A DNA stretch of 64,000 bases from Parapedobacter sp. 2B3 (GTDB lineage: Bacteria > Bacteroidota > Bacteroidia > Sphingobacteriales > Sphingobacteriaceae), in NCBI RefSeq assembly GCF_041925275.1, contig NZ_JBHEUZ010000014.1, positions 1-64,000 of the forward strand, in the 5' to 3' direction. The notes below the pieces were generated by a model. It did not search any database and had not been told where the DNA came from. It was given only the letters and a program-made list of their open reading frames with translations. Position 1 is the stretch's first letter; each line of letters starts with the position of its first letter. A program made the translations under genes and the position numbers. Below, one piece after another: positions 1,316 to 13,302 of this stretch.

Positions 1316-2704
1316 CTATAAATGGATCACTTCGCCGTATGCATCCGCGGCGGCTTCCATAATGGCCTCGCTCATGGTCGGGTGCGGATGCACGGCTTTG
1401 ATAATTTCGTGCCCCGTGGATTCCAACTTGCGGGCTACCACCACTTCGGCGATCATTTCCGTCACATTGGTTCCGATCATATGGGCTCCGAGGAACTCAC
1501 CGTATTTGGCGTCGAAAATCACCTTTACGAAACCGTCTTTCGCCCCGGCAGCACTTGCCTTGCCCGATGCGGAGAAGGGGAATTTGCCTACTTTGACTTC
1601 GTATCCGGCCTCCTTGGCAGCTTTTTCAGTAAAGCCCACCGATGCAATCTCGGGTGTGCAGTACGTGCAACCGGGAATGTTGTTGTAATCGATCGGCGAT
1701 ATATCCAGCCCTTTTATTTTCTCCACGCAGGTAATGCCTTCGGCCGAAGCGACATGTGCCAGCGCTTGGCCCTTTACGATATCGCCGATGGCGTAAACGC
1801 CGTTTACGTTGGTTTTGTAGAAGTCGTCTACCACCACGCGGCCTTTATCCGTTTTGACACCGGCCTCCTCCAAGCCCAGGTTTTCGATATTGGGGGTGAT
1901 GCCAACGGCCGACAACACGGTTTCAGCTTCGATGGTTTCGGTTCCTTTGGCTGTTTTTATCTGTACCTTGCATCGTTTGCCCGAGGTATCCACCGACTGC
2001 ACTTCGGCACTCGTGAGGATGTTGATACCCGCTTTCTTCAGACTGCGCTCCAGTTGCTTGGAGATTTCTTCATCTTCTACGGGTACAATGCGGTCGAGGT
2101 ACTCCACCACGGTTACCTTCGTGCCAATGGCATTGTAGAAATAAGCAAATTCAACGCCGATGGCACCGGATCCGACAACAACGAGCGATTCGGGTTGCTT
2201 TTCCAAACTCATCGCTTGGCGGTACCCGATGATGCGCTTGCCATCCTGCTTTAGGTTGGGAAGCTCGCGCGACCGCGCGCCCGTAGCCAATATCGTATGC
2301 GTTGCGGTGTATGTTTTGGTGTCCCCGTCTGAACCTTTGACTTCCACTTGGCCGCCTTTTTTTATTTTGGCCGTACCCATAACCACATCGATCTTGTTTT
2401 TCTTCATCAGGAACTGGATTCCCTTGCTCATGCCGTCGGCTACGCCGCGGCTGCGCTTCACGATCGCATCGAAATCGGCTTCGCCACCATTTACCTTGAT
2501 GCCGTAATCAGCGGCATGGTTGAGGTATTCAAATACCTGTGCGCTTTTGAGCAACGCTTTGGTGGGAATACAGCCCCAATTGAGACAGATGCCCCCCAAT
2601 GATTCCCGTTCTACAATGGCGGTTTTAAATCCAAGTTGGGAAGCCCTGATGGCGGCCACATAACCACCCGGTCCACTCCCGATTACAATGATGTCGTAGT
2701 TCAT
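1316..2704 (-). CDS. lpdA: Dihydrolipoyl dehydrogenase (E3 component), paralog 1
   Basis: 462 aa; 'MNYDIIVIGSGPGGYVAAIRASQLGFKTAIVERESLGGICLNWGCIPTKALL' FAD/redox-disulfide motif; C-terminal 'HAHPT.SE' dimerisation motif. Confidence 0.9.
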   Translation of the reverse strand: MNYDIIVIGSGPGGYVAAIRASQLGFKTAIVERESLGGICLNWGCIPTKALLKSAQVFEYLNHAADYGIKVNGGEADFDAIVKRSRGVADGMSKGIQFLMKKNKIDVVMGTAKIKKGGQVEVKGSDGDTKTYTATHTILATGARSRELPNLKQDGKRIIGYRQAMSLEKQPESLVVVGSGAIGVEFAYFYNAIGTKVTVVEYLDRIVPVEDEEISKQLERSLKKAGINILTSAEVQSVDTSGKRCKVQIKTAKGTETIEAETVLSAVGITPNIENLGLEEAGVKTDKGRVVVDDFYKTNVNGVYAIGDIVKGQALAHVASAEGITCVEKIKGLDISPIDYNNIPGCTYCTPEIASVGFTEKAAKEAGYEVKVGKFPFSASGKASAAGAKDGFVKVIFDAKYGEFLGAHMIGTNVTEMIAEVVVARKLESTGHEIIKAVHPHPTMSEAIMEAAADAYGEVIHL

Positions 2705-2933
2705 ATATCTTAGTTGCTTTCTTGAGATTGATTCACGTTTCTGTTGCTATCCCGAACATGTAAGGTGGCTACAAACTTACATAAATTTTTTTAAGAAAAT
2801 CCTAAAGTCGCGGCCGTAAGCGATTGACCCGGGACCGAGGACTAACCCCTCCGTCACATTTCGGTCAAAGGGTGGTGGCGACGCTAACCTGCCGGGATAA
2901 TTGGCTATCTTGCGGCCACAAAAACGATCAAAG

Positions 2934-3236
2934 ATGGTTACAACGAAACAAACCCTCAAATGGTTCTGTAACATTGCCCTTATCGAAGGGATATCCATGG
3001 TGGTGTTGGTTGCCTTTTCGGTGTTGAAACGCACCACCGACTACGAATGGGCCCTGTTGGGCGTGAAATACGTGGGCTGGGCGCACGGTATCCTGTTCAT
3101 CGCGTATGTGTACTTGCTATGGGCGTGTACAGACCGTTATAAGTGGAAAATCGGGCGCGTAGCTGCCTTCTTTCTGGCTTCGCTGATTCCTTTTGCTCCC
3201 TTTTTCGTTGAGCGGAAATTACGTCGGGAAGATTGA
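2934..3236 (+). CDS. Small integral membrane protein, DUF3817-like
   Basis: ATG at 2934 (MVTTKQTLKWF...); three hydrophobic helices; family assignment from memory of DUF3817 N-terminal pattern. Confidence 0.45.
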   Translation: MVTTKQTLKWFCNIALIEGISMVVLVAFSVLKRTTDYEWALLGVKYVGWAHGILFIAYVYLLWACTDRYKWKIGRVAAFFLASLIPFAPFFVERKLRRED

Positions 3237-3239
3237 TCT

Positions 3240-3629
3240 TTACGGTTTGTTCCCGGCGTAAGCGTAGGTGATTTCTGTCTTGCCGTGCGGCGTAGGGTTC
3301 CCTTCTTTGTCGAGATTGACGAAAACCAGTTTATCTATTGTCAATATGCTCTTGCGCGTGATTTTATTGCGCACTTGGCAGGTCAGCGTAATAGAGGTGT
3401 AGCCAAAGTGCGTCGCGGTGATGCCGAGTTCGATAATGTCGCCTTGGCGGGCCGAACTCACGAAGTTAATTTCGGAAATGAATTTGGTGACCACGTATGG
3501 ATTGCCCAACTGGACGATGGCGTAAATGACCGCCTCTTCGTCTATCCATCGGAGCAACGTCCCTCCGAAGAGGGTTCCGTTCGGGTTCAGGTCTTCGGGC
3601 TTGACCCATTTTCGGGTATGGAAATTCAT
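3240..3629 (-). CDS. Acyl-CoA thioesterase (hotdog fold)
   Basis: 129 aa; 'WVKPEDLNPNGTLFGGTLLRWIDE' hotdog thioesterase signature. Confidence 0.7.
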   Translation of the reverse strand: MNFHTRKWVKPEDLNPNGTLFGGTLLRWIDEEAVIYAIVQLGNPYVVTKFISEINFVSSARQGDIIELGITATHFGYTSITLTCQVRNKITRKSILTIDKLVFVNLDKEGNPTPHGKTEITYAYAGNKP

Positions 3630-3722
3630 TCGAAAATAGTTTGTTCTTTATAGGCCTCATGGGAACCTGCATGTTCATCGCCTTTTGTGCCAGACGCTGA
3701 CAGGGCAGGTTTCATGTGTATT

Positions 3723-5129
3723 TTACATATGGATGGCACGGTTATCTGTCGCAGCGAGCGATGCCTCGCGGAAAGCCTCCGTATAGGTGGGATGGGCATG
3801 GCAGATGCGGGCAATATCTTCGGCAGAGGCCCGGTATTCCATCGCCAGGGTGGCTTCGGCAATCATATCTGCGGCGCGGGGGCCGATCATATGTACGCCC
3901 AGCACTTCATCGGTGCTGGCGTCGGCTAGCACCTTTACGAAGCCATCCGTATCGCCGCTGGCTTTGGCACGGCCGCTGGCTTTGAAAGGGAATGACCCTG
4001 TTTTATAGGCGCGGCCGTCGGCTTTCAGTTGCTCTTCGGTTTTGCCTACGCTGGCTACTTCAGGCCAGGTGTATACAACGCCCGGAATGAGGTTGTAGTC
4101 GATGTGGGGCTGTTGGCCCGCAAGGCGCTCGGCTACGTATACCCCTTCGTCTTCGGCCTTATGGGCCAGCATGGCTCCCTTCACCACATCACCGATTGCA
4201 TATACTCCGGGTACGGATGTTTCAAGGTGTTCGTTTACGGGTATCTTCTTACCCCGTTCTTCCAGCGTGATGCCGATGTTTTCCAACCCCAACCCTTCGG
4301 TATAGGCTGTGCGGCCTACGGCAACGATGCAGTAGTCGCCTTCCCATGTAACGGCTTCGCCCTTTGCATTTTCCGCATTGACGGTTACCTTCTTCCCTTT
4401 GGCGGTGGCTCCGGTTACCTTGTGGCCCAAGTAGAACTCCATGCCAAGCGATTTCTTCAATATGCGCTGCAATTCCTTACCTAGTCCGCCATCCATGGTC
4501 GGGATGATGTTTTTCTCGTACTCCACCACAGACACCTTAGCGCCCAAACGTGCGTACACGGAACCCAGTTCGAGCCCGATGACCCCGCCCCCGATGATAA
4601 TCAGGTGTTTTGGTACCTCGGTCAGTGTCAGTGCCTCCGTAGAAGTGATGATCCGTTTTTTATCGATAGGGAGGAAAGGAAGGGCGGTGGGTTTGGACCC
4701 CGAAGCGATGACGATGTTCTTGCCAGTGATCTGCTCGGCCTTTCCTTCGGCCCCGGCTATTTTCACCGTATTTTTATCGACAAACGAGCCGATGCCCACG
4801 AAGCTGTCAATTTTATTCTTCTTGAACAGGAACGCGATCCCGGCAACGTTTTGCGTGATGACTTCATCTTTCCTGGCGATCATCTGCTTCATGTCTACCG
4901 CAAGGTTGCTAAGGTTGATACCATGCGCACCGAACTGGTGGGCAGCGTTATGGTAATGTTCGGAGGAGTCTAGCAACGCCTTTGAAGGGATGCATCCCAC
5001 GTTCAGGCAGGTGCCTCCAAACGTACTGTATTTCTCGATGATAGCCGTTTTCAAACCCAATTGTGCGCAACGGATGGCGGCTACGTATCCGCCGGGCCCG
5101 CTACCGATTATAATGACGTCGTACTGCAT
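3723..5129 (-). CDS. lpdA: Dihydrolipoyl dehydrogenase, paralog 2
   Basis: 468 aa; 'MQYDVIIIGSGPGGYVAAIRCAQLGLKTAIIEKYSTFGGTCLNVGCIPSKALL'; about 50% identical to paralog 1 by eye. Confidence 0.9.
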   Translation of the reverse strand: MQYDVIIIGSGPGGYVAAIRCAQLGLKTAIIEKYSTFGGTCLNVGCIPSKALLDSSEHYHNAAHQFGAHGINLSNLAVDMKQMIARKDEVITQNVAGIAFLFKKNKIDSFVGIGSFVDKNTVKIAGAEGKAEQITGKNIVIASGSKPTALPFLPIDKKRIITSTEALTLTEVPKHLIIIGGGVIGLELGSVYARLGAKVSVVEYEKNIIPTMDGGLGKELQRILKKSLGMEFYLGHKVTGATAKGKKVTVNAENAKGEAVTWEGDYCIVAVGRTAYTEGLGLENIGITLEERGKKIPVNEHLETSVPGVYAIGDVVKGAMLAHKAEDEGVYVAERLAGQQPHIDYNLIPGVVYTWPEVASVGKTEEQLKADGRAYKTGSFPFKASGRAKASGDTDGFVKVLADASTDEVLGVHMIGPRAADMIAEATLAMEYRASAEDIARICHAHPTYTEAFREASLAATDNRAIHM

Positions 5130-5194
5130 GTGATGAAGTTATTCAATTCGATGGCCAAAGGTACGTAATAATTGTTCGTGGATGGAAAAAGGTA

Positions 5195-5232
5195 CAAAAA
5201 AAGACAGCCGGTTGACTGTCTTCTTTTTTATT
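5195..5232 (-). terminator. Intrinsic terminator downstream of the cupredoxin gene (stem agacag/ctgtct flanked by A- and T-runs, potentially bidirectional)
   Basis: aaaaaaagacagccggttgactgtcttctttttt read in sequence. Confidence 0.5.
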
Positions 5233-5248
5233 GCGTATGTCGTGCCTG

Positions 5249-5782
5249 TTACTCAGCGACAATCTTTCCCTGCATCACACCGTAGTGGCCAGGGAAACTG
5301 CAGACAAATGGATAGACGCCTTTGCTATCCAGGGTAAACTCAATCACATCCGTTTCGCCCGGTCCCAACAATTTAGTGTGGGCAATGATAGACGATGCAA
5401 ACGTTGCCGGGATGTATTCGGTATCAACCGCTTTGATGGCCTCACCACCGAAAGCCGGTAAATCCGTTCCCGGTTGCAATACAACAACGTTGTGCCCCAT
5501 GGACTCCTTGGGCATTTCGCCCACATTCTTGAATGTCAATTTCACGGTCTCACCCGCTTTAACCCGGAAGAGCGTTTTGTCATACTGCATCAAATCAGTA
5601 CCTTCCAGTGCAATCTCGTTGCTTACAGCCACATCCGCCAAACCGGGGATGTCTACAGCTGGTGCTTCCTGCTCGGTAGCCGTCTCCGTAGCTTCAGTCG
5701 ATCCTTCACTTGTTTGGTTGCCTCCGCAAGCAGCGGCAAGAACTGCACCCGCAACCACGGGGATTAAAAAAAACTGTTTCAT
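5249..5782 (-). CDS. Cupredoxin (plastocyanin/azurin-family blue copper protein), lipoprotein
   Basis: Signal + 'AAACGG' lipobox; C-terminal 'YPFVCSFPGHYGVMQGKIV' = Cys-x2-His-x4-Met type-1 copper ligands. Confidence 0.7.
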   Translation of the reverse strand: MKQFFLIPVVAGAVLAAACGGNQTSEGSTEATETATEQEAPAVDIPGLADVAVSNEIALEGTDLMQYDKTLFRVKAGETVKLTFKNVGEMPKESMGHNVVVLQPGTDLPAFGGEAIKAVDTEYIPATFASSIIAHTKLLGPGETDVIEFTLDSKGVYPFVCSFPGHYGVMQGKIVAE

Positions 5783-5919: not shown

Positions 5920-7533
5920 TTACGCATCCGTTTTGTCTTTAGCTTCGGTGAGCGTTTTGATCAACTGGTAAAGTGAAACGGGATCGAAAGGTTTTCCGAC
6001 CACGGCGTCGGCCCCCGCTGCATAGGCAGCTTGCTGTTCGCGTTGCAGCACCGACGCGGAAATGGAGATGATAGGGATCTGCCGGATGTGCGCACGGCTA
6101 TCGCTCCGAATGGTACGGATAGCTTCGAAGCCGCTCATAACGGGCATGTGCGCATCCATGAGTATCAAGCTATAGGATGTGTCTTCCACTTTGTCCAATG
6201 CCTCTTTCCCGTTCTTCACGGCATCTACCGCAATCCCCCATGTCTTCAGCATGTGGGTTACCATGAAGCTATTCAGTTCATTGTCTTCGGCAAGGAGTAC
6301 ATTGACATTGTTGAGCACCGGTAGGTCTGTGTATTGCTTCTTGTCCGATTTTGGTGCCGAATCGGAATCGGCCTCATCAAACCAACACTGGAATACAAAT
6401 TCACTGCCCTTGCCCAACTCGCTGTACGCGTGGATTTGCCCTTGGTGGAGGATGACCAACCGTTTCACAATGGCCAGTCCGAGCCCCGTGCCACCGAAGC
6501 GTTTGGTGATGCCTTCTTCGCCTTGCTCGAACGATTGGAAGATTTTGTCGATGGCATTGCTGTTTATACCGATACCGGTATCTTTCACCGAAAACTGGAT
6601 ATGGATGCGCTGTTGGGTACGGTTGAGCAATTTGGTTTCCAACACCACGCTGCCCTGCTCCGTAAATTTGATGCCGTTTGAAATGAGGTTGCTCAATATC
6701 TGCGTAAGCCGCAGCGAATCGGCCAGGATGTGCTTGGGTAGCTTGCTGTCATTGATTGCTTGGAAGGTGATGCCTTTCTGTTCGGCTTTGTAGCTAAATA
6801 GGTTGGTAAGCTCTTCAATGATGTTGGGTAACGATGTCCGTGAATAGTCCAGCCTCATTTTTCCCGAATCGATCTTTGAAAGATCGAGGATGTCGTTGAT
6901 GATGAGCAACAGCTGCTGCGATGCGTTTTCCAGGTAATCCAGCCATTCCGACTGCTGGTCATTGAGGGGCGAGTTGCGCAGCATGGTGGTAATCCCCGTT
7001 ATCCCATTGATGGGGGTACGGATTTCGTGGCTCATGTTGGCGAGGAAGTTCTCTTTTGACTTGCGTGCCTGGTCTGCCTCTTTTTTGGCTTTGACCAGCT
7101 CGATGTGCGAGCGCTCGAGCTCTTCGTTTTTACGTTTCAGCTCTCGCTGGATATATACCTGCTGCATGAACGATTTTACCTTGGCTACCGTGATATCCGA
7201 GTTGAGCGGTTTATAAAGGTAGTCTACGGCACCACTGTGGAGCCCCTTGAGCAGGAATTTGTCTTCTTTAGATATGGCCGTAACCATGATCACCATGATT
7301 TGCCATGTTTTCGGATTGCTTTGAAGCAATGAAACAAACTCGAAACCATTGATTTCGGGCATCTGCACATCTACCATGGCGATAGCGATGTCGTTGTTCC
7401 AGCAATAACGGAGGGCCTCGTTGGGGGAGGTACTCCCCCATATATCCAGGTTCTCTATATCCGCCAGCAATGCCTTCAGGCTGAGTACATTCTCTTCTTT
7501 GTCGTCTACGATGACTAACTTCAGTTTCTCCAT
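5920..7533 (-). CDS. Soluble hybrid histidine kinase, REC-HisKA-HATPase-REC
   Basis: N-terminal 'LVIVDDKEENV...MVDVQMPEINGFEF' receiver; H-box 'ANMSHEIRTPING'; G-box 'DTGIGI...GGTGLGLAIVKRLV'; C-terminal receiver 'VLLAEDNELNSF...LMDAHMPVMSGFEA'. Confidence 0.85.
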   Translation of the reverse strand: MEKLKLVIVDDKEENVLSLKALLADIENLDIWGSTSPNEALRYCWNNDIAIAMVDVQMPEINGFEFVSLLQSNPKTWQIMVIMVTAISKEDKFLLKGLHSGAVDYLYKPLNSDITVAKVKSFMQQVYIQRELKRKNEELERSHIELVKAKKEADQARKSKENFLANMSHEIRTPINGITGITTMLRNSPLNDQQSEWLDYLENASQQLLLIINDILDLSKIDSGKMRLDYSRTSLPNIIEELTNLFSYKAEQKGITFQAINDSKLPKHILADSLRLTQILSNLISNGIKFTEQGSVVLETKLLNRTQQRIHIQFSVKDTGIGINSNAIDKIFQSFEQGEEGITKRFGGTGLGLAIVKRLVILHQGQIHAYSELGKGSEFVFQCWFDEADSDSAPKSDKKQYTDLPVLNNVNVLLAEDNELNSFMVTHMLKTWGIAVDAVKNGKEALDKVEDTSYSLILMDAHMPVMSGFEAIRTIRSDSRAHIRQIPIISISASVLQREQQAAYAAGADAVVGKPFDPVSLYQLIKTLTEAKDKTDA

Positions 7534-7535
7534 GG

Positions 7536-8150
7536 TTAATTCCTAAAAATATGGTTGCTCAGCCCTTGGCTGAGGATGATGAGTTCGCCGTTGGTGAGGG
7601 TCAAGTCCACCGCGCCTTTCCTGATAGCCGCGGCAGGCATGGTTTCCACTTCGGCATCGCGCGGATGCTGCACGATGCATAGTCCATCCACCTTGCGGAC
7701 GGACTCCATGCCCTCGGCACCGTCTTGGTTGGCACCCGACAGCAGGATGGCTACGGTGGATGCGCCGTAGACGTCTGCGGCGCTCTGCATGGTCACATCG
7801 ATCGATGGTCTGCAGAAATGCACCGGCTCGGAGGTGTCCAGTGATAGGCTTCGATCGGGTTCTACCAACAAGTGGTACCCGGCGGGAGCAAAATAGGCCG
7901 TAGCGGGCCGGATGGGCTCTTTGTCTTCCGCTACTTTCACCACTATACGGCATTTGGCAGCAAGGTTCGCTTCGAGATGGGTTTCGTAGTTGGCATTCCG
8001 GTGGATCACCACTAAGACGCCAACGGGGAGGTTTGCTGGCAATGCTTTAAGCATCGTTAAAAGCATTCTGAACCCACCGGCCGAACACCCCAGCACGAGC
8101 ACCCCGGTATGTCGGAGCTTATTGGCGATATATGGGTTTGACTCAAGCAA
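7536..8150 (-). CDS. cheB: CheB-type protein-glutamate methylesterase/glutaminase, catalytic domain only (no receiver)
   Basis: 204 aa; 'VLVLGCSAGG...VIHRN...GANQDG' consistent with the Ser-His-Asp methylesterase fold. Confidence 0.75.
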   Translation of the reverse strand: MLESNPYIANKLRHTGVLVLGCSAGGFRMLLTMLKALPANLPVGVLVVIHRNANYETHLEANLAAKCRIVVKVAEDKEPIRPATAYFAPAGYHLLVEPDRSLSLDTSEPVHFCRPSIDVTMQSAADVYGASTVAILLSGANQDGAEGMESVRKVDGLCIVQHPRDAEVETMPAAAIRKGAVDLTLTNGELIILSQGLSNHIFRN

Positions 8151-8955
8151 TTTTCTGATAGATATTATGTGTTTTGCTGATTACCCTGAATTTGTGCCGC
8201 AGCCCGTTGGCAGGGAGCGTTTCCCTGGCCCCCAAGCATAAGAAACCGAATAGCGCGAGGCTGGCATAGAGGAGATTAACCACCTTATGTTGCAGATCCG
8301 CCGTGAAATAAATGAGCACATTACGGCAGGTAATCAATTGGAATTCATTGAAAACGCCATCGGAAACCAAATTGTGTGTGGAAAATAAGATATTCTTCCG
8401 CAATTCGTGATGGACAATGGCGGAGTCGTACATCGCCGTGTAATACTCGGATAGCGAATCGCCCGAATCTGTTTGCAGGTAATTGTCGGAATAGACTTTC
8501 ATTTTTTTCAGGTCAATGATGCCCTGTTTTGCACGTTCAAGGACCGCTGTATTGACGTCGGTGCCATAGATGAATGTGCGGCTGTATAATCCTTCTTTAC
8601 TAAGAAGTATGGCGAGGGAGTAGACCTCTTCGCCCGTAGCGCAACCGGCACTCCATACCTTGATGTGGGGAAAGGTGGCGAGGTAAGGATGTATTTCTTC
8701 GCGCAGGGTCTTGTAAAATGCCGGATCGCGGAACATTTCCGTCACATTTACCGTTACTTCAACGAGAAACTCGTTGAAAAAGCCGGGCGAATTTACCAGA
8801 CTGTCTTTCAGTCCTGCGAAATCGATTTGATAAATCGTTAGGATACGGGATACGCGGCGTTTGAGGGACGCGCGTGAGTAGCCGCTCAAATCGAAGCCAT
8901 GGACGTTGTTGACCAACGTGATCAGCTCTTCCAGATTTCCGAACGATACCACCAT
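8143..8955 (-). CDS. cheR: CheR-type protein-glutamate O-methyltransferase
   Basis: 270 aa; 'TEMFRDP', 'VWSAGCATGEEVYSLAILL', 'CRNVLIYF' CheR SAM-MTase motifs; overlaps cheB by 8 nt. Confidence 0.85.
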   Translation of the reverse strand: MVVSFGNLEELITLVNNVHGFDLSGYSRASLKRRVSRILTIYQIDFAGLKDSLVNSPGFFNEFLVEVTVNVTEMFRDPAFYKTLREEIHPYLATFPHIKVWSAGCATGEEVYSLAILLSKEGLYSRTFIYGTDVNTAVLERAKQGIIDLKKMKVYSDNYLQTDSGDSLSEYYTAMYDSAIVHHELRKNILFSTHNLVSDGVFNEFQLITCRNVLIYFTADLQHKVVNLLYASLALFGFLCLGARETLPANGLRHKFRVISKTHNIYQKIA

Positions 8956-8965
8956 TCCCTATCGC

Positions 8966-11900
8966 TTAACTTAACCACACCCGTAATAAGGAGAGTAACT
9001 TATTGACGTCAACTGGCTTAGCGATGTAATCGCTCGCGCCAACATCAAGTACATGTTGCCGATCTCCTTGCATGGCCTTGGCCGTAACCGCGATGATGGG
9101 CAACTCCACGAATCTTTTGTCCTCCCGGATTCTCGTAATCGCCTCATAACCGTCCATTTCGGGCATCATGATATCCATCAAAACCAAATCGACGCTGGGG
9201 TTGTTTTGTAACGCGTCCAGTGCCTCCCGCCCGTTATTGGCTGTTTCAATGGTCAGTTTGTATGGGGCAAATACCGAGCTCAATGCAAAAATATTCCGCA
9301 TATCGTCATCCACTAGCAAGATATGCTTGCCGTTGAGTACATCGTCCATGTGGATGGTTTCCGATTCGTCCCGAACCGATTGGACCCGGCTGGGAACGGA
9401 TTTGTCGTCATTAAGCCTGTTGATGAATAGGTGAACCTCGTCAAGAATACGGCGATTGGACTTGTCTGATTTCAATACCATGGTTTGGGTATGTTGCAAG
9501 ATACGGCTCACTATTTCGGTGGTGAGTTCCATCGCCGTATTGATGATCACGGGTATGTCTGCATATAGGGGGATCTGCTTAATCTGGTCGAGCAGGTCGA
9601 CCCCCGATATATCGGGCAAGACAATGTCCAGCACGATGCAGTCGTAACGTTCCTCCGATTCCAGGAAGTCCAGCGCTTCGGTACCGGTAAATGCCTGCCT
9701 TACGTCTACCCCGCCATCCAAGAGGAATGCTTTCAGGTTTTCACTTTGGATTTCGTGGTCTTCCACAACCAATACTTTCTTCAGTGGCGATGCGGTGATT
9801 TTGTGCAGGTGGGCGAACACCTCGTCGAGCGATTTCCTATCGATGGGTTTTTTTAAGAATCCCACCGCTTCGGCTTCCATACCGCTCTCTTTGGATTGGC
9901 CGGCCGACATGAGGTGCACAGGGATGTGTTGGGTTGCCGGATTGTTTTTTAATTTCTTGAGCACAGTCCATCCGTCGACGACAGGTAGCATGATGTCGAG
10001 GATGATGGCATCGGGCAGCAAATCGATGGCCATCTGCAGTCCGGTATCCCCTTGGCGGGCGAGCAGCGCGTCAAACCCTTGGTCCTTGGCATAGGTGGTC
10101 AGGATGTCGGCAAAATACGGGTCGTCTTCTACGATCAGCAAGCGCTTTGGCCAGGCAGGTTCCTGTACCCCTCGCTGCGGGAGCGCCCCCTGCACTACCG
10201 GCATATGGGGCTGGTTGTCCGGCTTATCCGGCAGGGGCTCGGTATAAGCCGCGGTCGCGTCTATTTCGGGCCCGTTTCGCAGCGGGAGGAACAAGGTAAA
10301 GGTGCTGCCTTTGCCCACTCCACTAGCCACGTGGATGTGACCCCCAAGGAGCGTTGCAAGTTCCCTGCAAATGGACAATCCCAGGCCGGTGCCGCCAAAT
10401 TGACGGCTCGTGGAACCATCTGCCTGCTTGAAGGCTTCGAAAATCAGTTGCTGCTTTTTTTGGGCGATGCCCACACCGGTGTCTGATACGGCGATCGCGA
10501 TGGCTTGGTCTGCCGTTATCCCTCCCGCCAATTCGCCATCCCAGCCGGGCGCTTCGCCCGCCGGTGTAAACTGCAACTCCACCCGGCCCTTTTCTTTCGT
10601 GAATTTGAATGCGTTGGAGAGCAGGTTCCTAAGTATTTGCCGTAGGCGCTGTTCATCTGTGGCGATGCGCGCAGGTAGTCCCTCGTTCACCGTGATACGG
10701 AACTCGATCGCTTTACTGTCTGCGACACTGCTGAAAAGGTCAAGCATATCTTCGGCGATGGACGACAAGGTGATGTCTTCCCACAACAGCTCAACATTGC
10801 CCGATTCGATTTTCGATAAATCGAGTATGTTGTTGATCAGGTCGAGCAGGTCTGAACCCGCGTTATGGATAACGGATACATATTTTACTTGTTCGGGCAG
10901 TAAGTTACCTGTTTTGTTGTCTTCAAGCAATTTCGCGAGGATAAGTATGCTGTTGAGCGGAGTGCGCAATTCGTGGCTCATATTGGCCAGAAATTCCGAT
11001 TTATATCTGCCCGATTGTTCCAGTTCGCCCACTTTCAATGCAATGGATTGGCGGGCTAGCTCGATGGAAATATTGCGTTCTTCCAGTAACCTTGCTTTTT
11101 CTTCGAGTGCTAGGTTAGCGTGTTTAAGTTCTTCCTGCTGCACCCGCAATTCTTCCTGCTGAGCCTCCAATTCTTCTGCCTGTTGCTGCGTTTCTTCATA
11201 GAGGAGGGTAAGCGTTGTATGTGCCTGCGCTACTTTACTGGCCACGGCCAAAGAAATGCCTGCCCGTTGCAGGAATTGGAGGGTTTCTTTGTCGACCTCA
11301 CGGAAAAAGCCGATCTCCATTACGCCGAGCACTTCCTCTTCGTAAACCAGGGGTTGAATGACAATGTTTTTCGGCTCGGTTTTTCCCAAAGAGGATGTGA
11401 TGGTGAGGTAATTTTCGGGTATATGCGATAATACAAGTTGTTTTTTGGCAGAAATACTCTCGCCCGCCAATCCCTGGCCATCCATGATCTTAGGAGGAAT
11501 GTTTTTTGTCTCAACGGCATACGACCCCGCATGGACATATACTTCTTCCCGGGAAAAGCTTTTGAGGTAAATCATTCCGACCTTTGCTTGTACATGTTGG
11601 CAAACCGTCCGGATCGCATTGGTGGCTATTTCTTTTTCGCTACGCCCACCACGCGTATGGTTATCCAGGGCAGCCAAGCCGCTGAGTATCCAATTGTCTA
11701 CCTCTTTTGTTTTCGATAGTTTATTGAGGTCACGGTTGGATTTGCGGATGCGGTAGGCGATTTCCTTGTAGTGTTCAAAGGTTTTTGTGATATAAACCAA
11801 CAGCCACACAATGAGCGCAAAGACCAATACCGAGGTGACAATGAAGGTGGTCCGGATACTGGCAAGTGTGGTATCGGCCACCTCTACCTGGTTGAAGAGC

Positions 11901-11995
11901 AAGGTGAGGTAGCGTAAACTAACAAGCAGGATCGCGATCAGGAGTGAGAAGCCTAGATAGATGTGTACCCTGAAGGTTAGTCGTTTCATAATCAA
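8966..11995 (-). CDS. Membrane-anchored GAF-domain hybrid sensor histidine kinase with three C-terminal receiver domains
   Basis: 1009 aa; two N-terminal TM helices; GAF-like region about aa 110-250; Q/E-rich coiled coil aa 265-330; H-box 'ANMSHELRTPLNS'; HATPase 'DTGVGI...GGTGLGLSICREL'; three D-x-x-P receivers ('LLIVEDDP', 'VLVVEDHE', 'ILLVDDDM'). Confidence 0.85.
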   Translation of the reverse strand: MIMKRLTFRVHIYLGFSLLIAILLVSLRYLTLLFNQVEVADTTLASIRTTFIVTSVLVFALIVWLLVYITKTFEHYKEIAYRIRKSNRDLNKLSKTKEVDNWILSGLAALDNHTRGGRSEKEIATNAIRTVCQHVQAKVGMIYLKSFSREEVYVHAGSYAVETKNIPPKIMDGQGLAGESISAKKQLVLSHIPENYLTITSSLGKTEPKNIVIQPLVYEEEVLGVMEIGFFREVDKETLQFLQRAGISLAVASKVAQAHTTLTLLYEETQQQAEELEAQQEELRVQQEELKHANLALEEKARLLEERNISIELARQSIALKVGELEQSGRYKSEFLANMSHELRTPLNSILILAKLLEDNKTGNLLPEQVKYVSVIHNAGSDLLDLINNILDLSKIESGNVELLWEDITLSSIAEDMLDLFSSVADSKAIEFRITVNEGLPARIATDEQRLRQILRNLLSNAFKFTKEKGRVELQFTPAGEAPGWDGELAGGITADQAIAIAVSDTGVGIAQKKQQLIFEAFKQADGSTSRQFGGTGLGLSICRELATLLGGHIHVASGVGKGSTFTLFLPLRNGPEIDATAAYTEPLPDKPDNQPHMPVVQGALPQRGVQEPAWPKRLLIVEDDPYFADILTTYAKDQGFDALLARQGDTGLQMAIDLLPDAIILDIMLPVVDGWTVLKKLKNNPATQHIPVHLMSAGQSKESGMEAEAVGFLKKPIDRKSLDEVFAHLHKITASPLKKVLVVEDHEIQSENLKAFLLDGGVDVRQAFTGTEALDFLESEERYDCIVLDIVLPDISGVDLLDQIKQIPLYADIPVIINTAMELTTEIVSRILQHTQTMVLKSDKSNRRILDEVHLFINRLNDDKSVPSRVQSVRDESETIHMDDVLNGKHILLVDDDMRNIFALSSVFAPYKLTIETANNGREALDALQNNPSVDLVLMDIMMPEMDGYEAITRIREDKRFVELPIIAVTAKAMQGDRQHVLDVGASDYIAKPVDVNKLLSLLRVWLS

Positions 11996-12075: not shown

Positions 12076-13302
12076 TCAAAGTATCGGATGCCTTTCGAAT
12101 GGCTTGGTAGGGTCAAATAAGTAGCGGTAGGTGTGGTGCGTTTTATAGATGGTGCCGCCGATATACCGGGCTACGTTCATCATTTTAGGGTTGAAATCGC
12201 CAATCCAATTCATCTGTATCTCTTCATACCGTACTTGCGAGGGATCTTGTACCACCTTTGTTGCGGCTACTACCAACGCGGCCTCCACTCCCTTCCGCTG
12301 GTGGTCTGGCACCACGCCGAATACGATGCCGAACATGGTCCTGCAGCGTTTGCGCCATCGGTTCCAGACGAACAGCAGTTTGCCCCACAGGGTCAGTCTT
12401 CCATCCATGTATTTGACGATGAGCTGATTTACGTCCGGTATATTCACCCAGAAAGCCACGGGTTGGCCGCGGTAGTAAGCAAACCATATGATTTTCGGGT
12501 CGACAATGGGTTTCATGCTTTGCATGAGCTTGCGGGCGTTTCCCACACTCATAGGGCCCACACCCTCGTGCCTCGCCCAGGCCTCGTTGTATACCGTACA
12601 GAAATCTTCGGCTGCTTTATCAAGTCTGTCGGCCCGTATATGGCTGAAGGTATAGCCGGCGTCTTGGAGCGTATTCATCGCTTTCTCGCTGACCTTGCTA
12701 GATAGCTTGGCGGCGATTTCGCGGCGGTAGGTGAATTGCTTGAAATAGACTTGGAAGCCGTATCGTTCGAATAATCGCTGGTAATAGGGCGGGTTGTAGT
12801 TGCAGCAATAGCACGGCGGATGGAAACCGTCTACAAGAAGGCCCCACCAGCGTTCGCGGTTGCCGAAATTGATTGGCCCGTCCATCGCCTGTATGCCTTT
12901 TTCCTGCAGCCATTCCTTTGCGGCATTGAAAAGTAGGTCGGCGGCCTGTTGATTGTCCACGCATTCGAAAAAACCACAGCCGCCGACGGGAAATTCGTCC
13001 CCCTCGAACGTACTGTTATTATAGAATGCCGCGATACGGCCGATGAAGCGGCCGTTGCCGTCGCGGAGCAGCCACCGGGCGCAATGGCCCGTGCGATGGC
13101 GCGGATTGGCGTCCGGATCGAATACCCGGTGCACGTCGTTATCAAACGGACGGATGTAATGTGGATCATCGCTGTACAACGTGGGCGCCATCGTTACGAA
13201 CGCCCGGGCCAGTTGCTCTCCGGTAACGGGTATGATTTCCATAGCTGCTGTCGAATCGATTCTGTCGGTGCTAAAAATAGCGGTTTGTTCCCGCTTCTCC
13301 AA
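12076..13302 (-). CDS. Putative GNAT-fold / FemAB-like acyltransferase (uncharacterised family)
   Basis: 408 aa; C-terminal 'VFGVVPDHQRKGVEAALVV' resembles GNAT motif A (R/Q-x-x-G-x-G/A); start could be the internal Met at 13242. Confidence 0.35.
   Translation of the reverse strand: MEKREQTAIFSTDRIDSTAAMEIIPVTGEQLARAFVTMAPTLYSDDPHYIRPFDNDVHRVFDPDANPRHRTGHCARWLLRDGNGRFIGRIAAFYNNSTFEGDEFPVGGCGFFECVDNQQAADLLFNAAKEWLQEKGIQAMDGPINFGNRERWWGLLVDGFHPPCYCCNYNPPYYQRLFERYGFQVYFKQFTYRREIAAKLSSKVSEKAMNTLQDAGYTFSHIRADRLDKAAEDFCTVYNEAWARHEGVGPMSVGNARKLMQSMKPIVDPKIIWFAYYRGQPVAFWVNIPDVNQLIVKYMDGRLTLWGKLLFVWNRWRKRCRTMFGIVFGVVPDHQRKGVEAALVVAATKVVQDPSQVRYEEIQMNWIGDFNPKMMNVARYIGGTIYKTHHTYRYLFDPTKPFERHPIL

Follow-up and report, generated by a model that had tools for sequence, protein, structure and literature searches.

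A glutamate-rich heptad coil encoded beside cheR and cheB in Parapedobacter sp. 2B3 as a probable methyl-accepting signaling helix of an RsbK-type hybrid histidine kinase

The stretch of 64,000 nucleotides from Parapedobacter sp. 2B3 analyzed here (assembly GCF_041925275.1, contig NZ_JBHEUZ010000014.1, positions 1 to 64,000; referred to as the window) carries a gene for a large hybrid sensor histidine kinase. Downstream of it, in close succession and in the same orientation, are three genes coding for a CheR-type methyltransferase, a CheB-type methylesterase and a second kinase of the composition REC-HisKA-HATPase_c-REC (Table 1). The subject of this study is a heptad coil rich in glutamine and glutamate (Q/E), which is located in the first kinase between the GAF domain and the phospho-accepting histidine. 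The comparative evidence makes it likely that this segment is the methyl-accepting signaling helix of an RsbK-type hybrid histidine kinase and a substrate of CheR. The tuning of a kinase by helix methylation is already known from the RsbK/RsbM system of Bacillus cereus, and by analogy the operon in the window fits that kind.

Residue numbers follow the open reading frame (ORF) of 1009 codons. The encoded protein shows 100% identity with a Parapedobacter sp. 2B3 protein of 1007 amino acids, the ATG of which lies two codons further in, and the NCBI numbering is obtained by subtracting two. The kinase is composed of two transmembrane segments, GAF, the Q/E signaling helix, HisKA, HATPase_c and three receiver domains, in this order. 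Pfam searches, for which a threshold of E ≤ 0.01 was applied, yielded matches to GAF_2 (residues 118-244, 1.2e-11), GAF (122-252, 1.4e-08), HisKA (332-399), HATPase_c (446-573) and three Response_reg stretches. All elements of an RsbK-type hybrid kinase, i.e., GAF, helix, HisKA, HATPase_c and receivers, are present. The N-terminus (11789-11995) is reduced to two hydrophobic segments and an intervening loop of about 18 residues, so that the GAF domain is the sole recognizable sensor module which remains. The best 120 homologues are all hybrid kinases of Sphingobacteriaceae, and most of them have a length of about 1150-1170 amino acids and a CHASE3 domain (PF05227), which is absent from the window kinase according to Pfam.

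In a first-pass annotation, which was made from the sequence alone, a Q/E-rich heptad helix had been proposed at 11098-11205 and was said to be visible at the DNA level as two units 21 nt apart. Both observations were confirmed. Read from the minus strand, this region encodes residues 264-299 of the kinase (LYEETQQQAEELEAQQEELRVQQEELKHANLALEEK) and belongs to a run of ten regular heptads, in which L262, L276, L283, L290, L297, L304, I311, I318, and L325 recur as each seventh residue, with T269 as the sole break. In an autocorrelation analysis, the glutamates as well as the residues L, I, V, and M peak at lags of 7 and 14. The 12-mer TTCTTCCTGCTG codes for QQEE when read from the minus strand; it is found at 11129-11140 and 11150-11161, i.e., with a spacing of 21 nt, and its copies sit within a 21-nt direct repeat of 81% identity. 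At the protein level there are three Glu-Glu-Leu (EEL) units spaced by seven residues, whose second glutamates are E275, E282, and E289.

The most economical register places leucine at position d and Q280, Q287, N294, A301, and N308 at position a. The Glu pairs E274/E275, E281/E282, and E288/E289 then fall on the exposed positions b and c, and the Gln pairs on g and a. In an alternative register the Glu pairs occupy f and g, and in both assignments they lie outside the core. The coil thereby presents Glu pairs at a seven-residue spacing on an exposed helix face, as is the case in the adaptation region of methyl-accepting chemotaxis proteins (MCPs).

The pattern EEL-x4-EEL occurs just twice in the six frames of the 64-kb window, both times in the kinase coil, and a heptad-spaced EEL pair upstream of the H-box was found in none of the 59 other H-box kinases encoded in the 80 related loci described below. 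Because of this confinement, together with the near-invariance of the coil across Bacteroidota families, the pattern is regarded as more than chance.

A model of residues 105-400 was calculated with AlphaFold2 from an alignment of 33 sequences (mean pLDDT, the predicted local distance difference test score, 85.4; model residue 1 is protein residue 105). In this model the last helix of the GAF domain, the Q/E coil and the first DHp helix with His341 form one continuous helix; the pLDDT is about 87-94 along the coil and drops to about 80-84 within DHp. The model and the heptad register both point to a continuous helix from GAF to DHp, as expected of an RsbK-type kinase. The Q/E helix had been placed directly before the H-box, which was not upheld, since the coil forms the N-terminal half of a predicted helix of 124 residues that continues into DHp, and since E289 lies 52 residues N-terminal of His341, with about six further heptads of the same helix in between.

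The linkage of the coil to cheR and cheB was analyzed by scanning one genome per species with the coil patterns EEL[RHM]VQQE and [QH][IAT]NxEL[EQ]EKA and without a criterion for cheR. This yielded 80 loci from Sphingobacteriaceae, Dyadobacter, Chitinophagaceae, Cyclobacteriaceae, Chryseobacterium, and two Ureibacillus (Bacillales). A cheR homologue is located 0-680 nt downstream of the coil kinase and on the same strand in 78 of them. In one of the two exceptions (L027) the contig stops inside the kinase gene, which leaves a locus of a Flavihumibacter metagenome-assembled genome (MAG), L080, as the only complete one. The gene cheB was found in 49 of the 80 fetched loci and, with the window, in 50 of the 79 cheR-bearing sequences. 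Most Pedobacter loci lack it, as does the locus of the nearest relative, a Parapedobacter MAG (L063, 12187-14682), where cheR and the coil are unchanged. From this distribution, cheB was apparently gained or lost repeatedly. The order of genes in Sphingobacteriales and Dyadobacter is kinase, CheR, an optional CheB and the REC-kinase-REC protein, while in the Chitinophagaceae- and Chryseobacterium-type loci the kinase is followed by a single receiver protein, CheR and usually CheB.

Across Bacteroidota families and across phyla the coil is nearly invariant, while the flanking sequence diverges. The helices of the homologues are almost identical, the usual form being QQQAEELESQQEELRTTNEELxxKxxxLQASEEELRVQQEELRQTNAELEEKA. 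Column statistics were derived from the 79 cheR-bearing sequences (78 loci and the window), with positions counted back from the phospho-accepting histidine. Invariant or nearly so are E(-60), E(-59), L(-58), Q(-55), Q(-54), E(-53), E(-52), L(-51), and N(-47). The most conserved of the three units is Q-Q-E-E-L at -55 to -51, which is identical in all 79 sequences; in the AEEL unit comprising E274 and E275 the second glutamate and the leucine are invariant and the first glutamate is found in 76 of 79. Within the family the two core asparagines N294 and N308 are likewise fully or nearly invariant.

The key columns are equally conserved in the 50 sequences with cheB (window included) and in the 29 which have cheR and lack cheB. 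At the conserved QQ and EE columns no interchange between Glu and Gln was observed among the 79 sequences. The few columns that do vary between the two residues (-64, -85, -94) track phylogeny and are uninformative on the presence of cheB. The first-pass annotation had named, as a check, whether the motif is conserved specifically beside cheR and cheB, and the outcome was split: the loss of cheB leaves the motif unrelaxed, and the retention of the motif without cheR was seen a single time, in L080. It had further been proposed that CheB deamidates the glutamines of the coil. These are invariant in the 79 sequences, including the 29 without cheB, and one of each pair occupies a core position, which argues against this idea. 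Because they are never interchanged with glutamate and are conserved without cheB, the glutamines are probably structural rather than sites of deamidation.

In the window kinase and the Parapedobacter proteins closest to it the coil is shorter than the usual form by exactly 21 residues, i.e., three heptads. This deletion is common only to them, and its junction (11150-11176) lies between two similar EELR units. As all length variants of the coil (-21, -7, and +7 residues) are multiples of seven, the heptad phase is always kept. The constraint on the Glu and Gln residues outside the core exceeds the need of a plain coiled coil, which would be in keeping with recognition of the coil by an enzyme.

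Similar coils and further kinases were noted in two other contexts. The representative proteins P0128, P0137, and P0172 consist of a GAF domain and several PAS domains with similar Q/E coil copies (QQQAEELKAQEEELRQNMEEL) between them, and no kinase domain was detected in them. In a third H-box kinase of the window (at about 35422 on the minus strand, LFTNVSHEFRTP) the H-box is not preceded by EEL heptads.

The closest solved structure to the CheR of the window is B. subtilis CheR (5ftw, E 1e-31), and the motifs WSAGCxTGEE and RNVxIYF are retained. Its match to CheR_N is sub-threshold (26.8 bits vs. a cut-off of 27). With the kinase-linked CheR of Ureibacillus it shares 42% identity. The CheB was aligned to T. 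maritima CheB (3sft, E 1.6e-25), and this comparison shows the serine (CSAGG; pattern GxSxGG), the histidine (VIHR; VxxH) and the aspartate (QDGA; DG) within their conserved motifs. These residues form the catalytic Ser-His-Asp triad of CheB. A receiver domain as in chemotaxis CheB was not found, since Pfam matches the esterase domain alone. With their catalytic motifs intact, both enzymes look active.

A homologue of the second kinase is located after cheR or cheB in the loci of Sphingobacteriales and Dyadobacter. It is absent from the Chitinophagaceae/Chryseobacterium-type and Ureibacillus loci, in which cheR is still present. No Q/E heptads and no heptad-spaced EEL pair were found in the 537 amino acids of the second kinase of the window.

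These results can be combined into the following mechanism. The kinase would dimerize via a long parallel coiled coil, which joins the GAF sensor to the helix of His341. The CheR encoded 10 nt downstream would esterify one or more of the exposed glutamates, with S-adenosylmethionine as donor. The comparative data predict the second glutamate of each EEL unit (E275, E282, and E289), and not the glutamines, as the likeliest acceptors. The loss of negative charge may alter the stability or the rotation of the coil, which could shift the kinase, phosphatase or phosphotransfer state of DHp and its interplay with the three receivers. The receiver-less CheB would strip off the methyl groups and so render the mark reversible; because many relatives do without cheB, it is regarded as an accessory part. 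The signal would then probably pass to the REC-kinase-REC protein encoded by the last gene of the operon.

A role of the helix as a CheR substrate is favored because cheR adjoins the kinase gene in nearly all loci, because the Glu pairs lie outside the core and because the helix of RsbK is methylated by a CheR-like enzyme. The first-pass annotation had considered the helix a substrate of both CheR and CheB. Its CheR part is well supported by these three points, if indirectly, while the CheB part fared less well, as cheB is optional and the motif is equally conserved without it.

Among the other explanations, the one that survives best is a purely structural helix, in which the glutamates and glutamines serve coiled-coil packing and salt bridges between the helices, and in which CheR and CheB act on the second kinase or on a protein elsewhere. 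Kinases without CheR commonly contain a long helical linker between sensor and DHp, glutamine at positions g and a fits packing, and in L080 the motif is kept without a nearby cheR. We nevertheless consider this explanation unlikely, as it accounts neither for the adjacency of cheR in 78 of 80 loci nor for invariant Glu pairs outside the core, and as the methylated element of RsbK is the helix (PMC4574943). The second kinase was rejected as the target of CheR and CheB, as the motif is lacking from it and as it does not occur in all loci, being absent from the Chitinophagaceae/Chryseobacterium-type and Ureibacillus loci that keep cheR.

Far less probable is a derivation of the coil from the adaptation region of a chemoreceptor, with CheB deamidating glutamines into new methylation sites as in MCPs. 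It is suggested by EE and QQ pairs in heptad register, by the adjacency of both cheR and cheB, and by the presence, in the common long form (EELRTTN), of small residues at +4/+5 after some EE pairs, like in the MCP consensus. Against it stand the glutamine positions, which are never occupied by glutamate, are kept in the 29 loci without cheB and provide one core residue per pair, as well as the predicted geometry, which is a parallel two-helix coil running into DHp and not a helical hairpin bundle. Sequence homology to chemoreceptors was not detected, as the window kinase has no match to MCPsignal (Pfam) at E ≤ 0.01, and an MCP-derived domain was rejected for this reason. The term "transplanted adaptation region", which had been used for the segment, was not retained either, since the helix is ancestral to a large family of kinases across phyla and not a local acquisition. 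That the repeat is a chance product of low complexity or of recent slippage without function, as the two 21-nt DNA copies and the 21-residue deletion, suggestive of recombination between repeat units, might indicate, can be dismissed, as the protein is nearly invariant across families and phyla while its flanks have diverged, and as every indel preserves the heptad phase.

Several points weigh against the preferred reading of the segment as a methyl-accepting helix. All evidence for methylation of the window kinase is comparative, and it is by comparison that we infer the methylation itself, the identity of the acceptors and the direction of the effect. The helix was likened to that of RsbK by its architecture and through related Bacillales kinases. 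The two Ureibacillus (Bacillales) kinases carry a 4HB_MCP-HAMP sensor instead of CHASE3 and are for this reason taken as relatives and not as orthologues of RsbK; a protein search seeded with the Ureibacillus homologue returned, among the 120 matches listed, only Bacillales 4HB_MCP-HAMP-GAF kinases and none from B. cereus. The chemoreceptor methylation consensus is matched only in part by the coil. The locus L080 (8678-12283) keeps the full motif, and neither cheR nor cheB is found in the 10 kb that flank it in each direction. Finally, the loci were sampled by the motif, and the count for cheR linkage covers motif-bearing kinases only.

The coordinates of all features of the operon are listed in Table 1. 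Downstream of the operon (1316-5782), two paralogous dihydrolipoyl dehydrogenase-like genes coding for 462 and 468 amino acids were identified by reading the sequence, and the same region contains a cupredoxin gene (177 amino acids, Pfam). ORFs which match the dehydrogenase-like and cupredoxin genes in size and order also follow the operon in Sphingobacterium and Parapedobacter loci. The 408-amino-acid ORF directly upstream of the kinase gene (12076-13302, minus strand) has no Pfam match at E ≤ 0.01.

Table 1. Features of the kinase operon in the window, with the evidence for each; residue numbers refer to the ORF of 1009 codons.
Feature	Position	Strand	Basis
Hybrid sensor histidine kinase, 1009 codons	8966..11995	minus	ORF list and translation; Pfam
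GAF domain, residues 118-252 (union of two overlapping Pfam matches)	11240..11644	minus	Pfam
Single unbroken helix (predicted), residues 236-359 (model 132-255; 124 residues)	10919..11290	minus	AlphaFold2
Heptad coil (signaling helix), residues 262-331	11003..11212	minus	register, autocorrelation, 81-sequence alignment
Q/E-rich part, residues 267-290, EETQQQAEELEAQQEELRVQQEEL	11126..11197	minus	translation; nearly invariant in homologues
Glu pair E274-E275, -67/-66 from His341, candidate methyl acceptor	11171..11176	minus	AEEL unit near-invariant in 79 loci
Glu pair E281-E282, -60/-59 from His341, candidate methyl acceptor	11150..11155	minus	QQEE codons are repeat copy 2, 11150-11161
Glu pair E288-E289, -53/-52 from His341, candidate methyl acceptor	11129..11134	minus	QQEE codons are repeat copy 1, 11129-11140
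Phospho-accepting His341 in H-box FLANMSHELRTP	10973..10975	minus	regular expression and numbering; HisKA match
CheR-type SAM (S-adenosylmethionine)-dependent glutamate O-methyltransferase, 270 aa (amino acids), start 10 nt past kinase stop	8143..8955	minus	Pfam CheR (PF01739) 5.2e-40
CheB-type methylesterase, catalytic domain only, 204 aa, 8-nt overlap with cheR end	7536..8150	minus	Pfam CheB_methylest (PF01339) 3.6e-50
Second hybrid kinase REC-HisKA-HATPase_c-REC, 537 aa, last operon gene	5920..7533	minus	Pfam

Methylation by CheR and its removal by CheB are usually taught as a property of chemoreceptors. Members of the Bacteroidota are not known to be flagellated. A wider search was carried out for coils of this type. 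The 76-residue coil, compared with 1.84 billion representative proteins, gave 55 matches at E ≤ 0.001, nearly all of which are GAF-coil-kinase hybrids or fragments thereof; none has a fused CheR, and CheB-CheR fusion proteins were not reached in this way. With a synthetic query of NEEL heptads, 304 short proteins were matched, many of which are labeled by the Joint Genome Institute (JGI) as CheB/CheR fusion fragments or carry PAS_10. On two contigs (L081, L082) the coil fragment has a CheR gene on one side and a PAS_10 gene on the other. When plasmids were searched by tblastn with a query of coil plus PAS_10, 262 records were obtained. One of the proteins found is the intact WP_011428386.1 of Rhizobium etli CFN42 plasmid p42f (L083, 2039-6013), which has 1324 amino acids and is composed of CheB_methylest, CheR_N, CheR, the coil, PAS_10, further PAS domains and HWE_HK. 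The coil of this fusion family consists of six heptad units with invariant Glu-Glu pairs, most of which are followed by leucine (xNEEL). Aligned to the coil of the window family with hhalign, it gave a probability of 95.9% and an E-value of 6e-9 over 61 ungapped columns, a score which may be inflated by coiled-coil composition.

As both coil families are linked to CheR and CheB, it can be asked whether the EEL heptad coil is a portable methyl-accepting module outside of chemoreceptors, which would serve as substrate of CheR (and CheB) in two large kinase families without CheA, CheW and MCPs. The first family may comprise the GAF-coil-HisKA hybrids located beside cheR with or without cheB, i.e., the window kinase, RsbK and many kinases of Bacteroidota and Bacillales. 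The second may comprise the CheB-CheR-coil-PAS_10 fusion kinases, in which the coil lies in one polypeptide with both enzymes. We regard such a module as a real possibility, with the balance tipped slightly against it. If it exists, adaptation by methylation would be a widespread and largely unstudied property of ordinary two-component kinases, and cheB-containing operons like that of the window would represent the reversible version which is missing from the B. cereus model. Apart from the RsbK papers, the literature searched yielded nothing relevant on CheR/CheB with hybrid kinases in Bacteroidota or on CheB-CheR fusions; it reports no function for the coil of the fusion kinases, and the EEL heptad coil was not encountered in it as a general methyl-accepting module. 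The occurrence of a related coil fused to CheB and CheR suggests that the phenomenon is broader than this literature reports.

Among the known systems, the CheB-CheR fusion kinases (of the KEGG K13924 type) are similar in that a heptad coil with EE pairs is physically linked to CheB and CheR. They differ in that their coil belongs to the same polypeptide as the enzymes and precedes a PAS_10/PAS/HWE kinase, whereas that of the window lies between GAF and the HisKA DHp domain. The signaling helix (S-helix) was reportedly introduced by Anantharaman, Balaji and Aravind in 2006 as a heptad linker between a sensor and a downstream catalytic domain. The window helix resembles it by the conserved charged motif LEERN, located about halfway along the portion closer to DHp, whereas its Q/E-rich EEL heptads form an N-terminal extension outside of the generic S-helix signature.

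With the adaptation helices of MCPs the system shares the enzyme families CheR and CheB, the Glu pairs recurring every seven residues on the exposed face of a coil and the expectation that neutralization of charge would shift the signaling equilibrium. The differences are a predicted parallel two-helix coil running into DHp instead of an antiparallel four-helix bundle, a system in which no CheA or CheW is involved, and sites at which Glu and Gln are not interchanged within the window family. Moreover, the CheB of the window lacks a receiver domain, and many lineages dispense with cheB.

The closest known system is RsbK/RsbM of B. cereus (RsbK, WP_002197482.1; Chen et al. 2012, Environ Microbiol 14:2788). 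The signaling helix of RsbK was shown experimentally to be methylated by the CheR-like RsbM, which represses the output and keeps sigma-B signaling off; the gene of RsbM, an orphan methyltransferase without a paired esterase, is located immediately downstream of that of RsbK, and 127 RsbK-like kinases were reported in 10 phyla (PMC4574943). RsbM is homologous to CheR, the sensory domains of RsbK are CHASE3, HAMP, and GAF, and the genomic association of RsbK with CheR is credited to earlier work of de Been and colleagues (PMC12848376). The window operon has in common with this system a hybrid kinase with GAF, a helix before DHp and C-terminal receivers, and in both operons a gene for a CheR-type methyltransferase directly follows that of the kinase. 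The methylated element of RsbK, and the proposed one of the window kinase, is the helix which joins GAF to DHp, and the CHASE3 domain of RsbK is found in most homologues of the window kinase, though not in the window kinase itself. The study of 2012 reportedly mapped the methylation of RsbK to E439 and E446, which would lie at -66 and -59 from H505, the very offsets of E275 and E282 from His341; this agreement is given as a lead, not as a result.

The two systems differ in the presence of cheB in the window operon, as RsbM has no paired esterase, and in the kinase itself, which in the window has three receivers and has lost CHASE3, while RsbK has one receiver. They further differ in the partner, which is a REC-kinase-REC protein in the window and the RsbY (PP2C) phosphatase with the sigma-B module for RsbK, and in the host, which is here a member of the Bacteroidota. 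RsbK/RsbM proved that a kinase helix can be a substrate and is the sole system studied, one without an esterase. In the window operon a helix of this kind occurs together with both a methyltransferase and an esterase that lacks a receiver, and with four genes and three candidate glutamates the operon would offer a compact test of reversible kinase adaptation.

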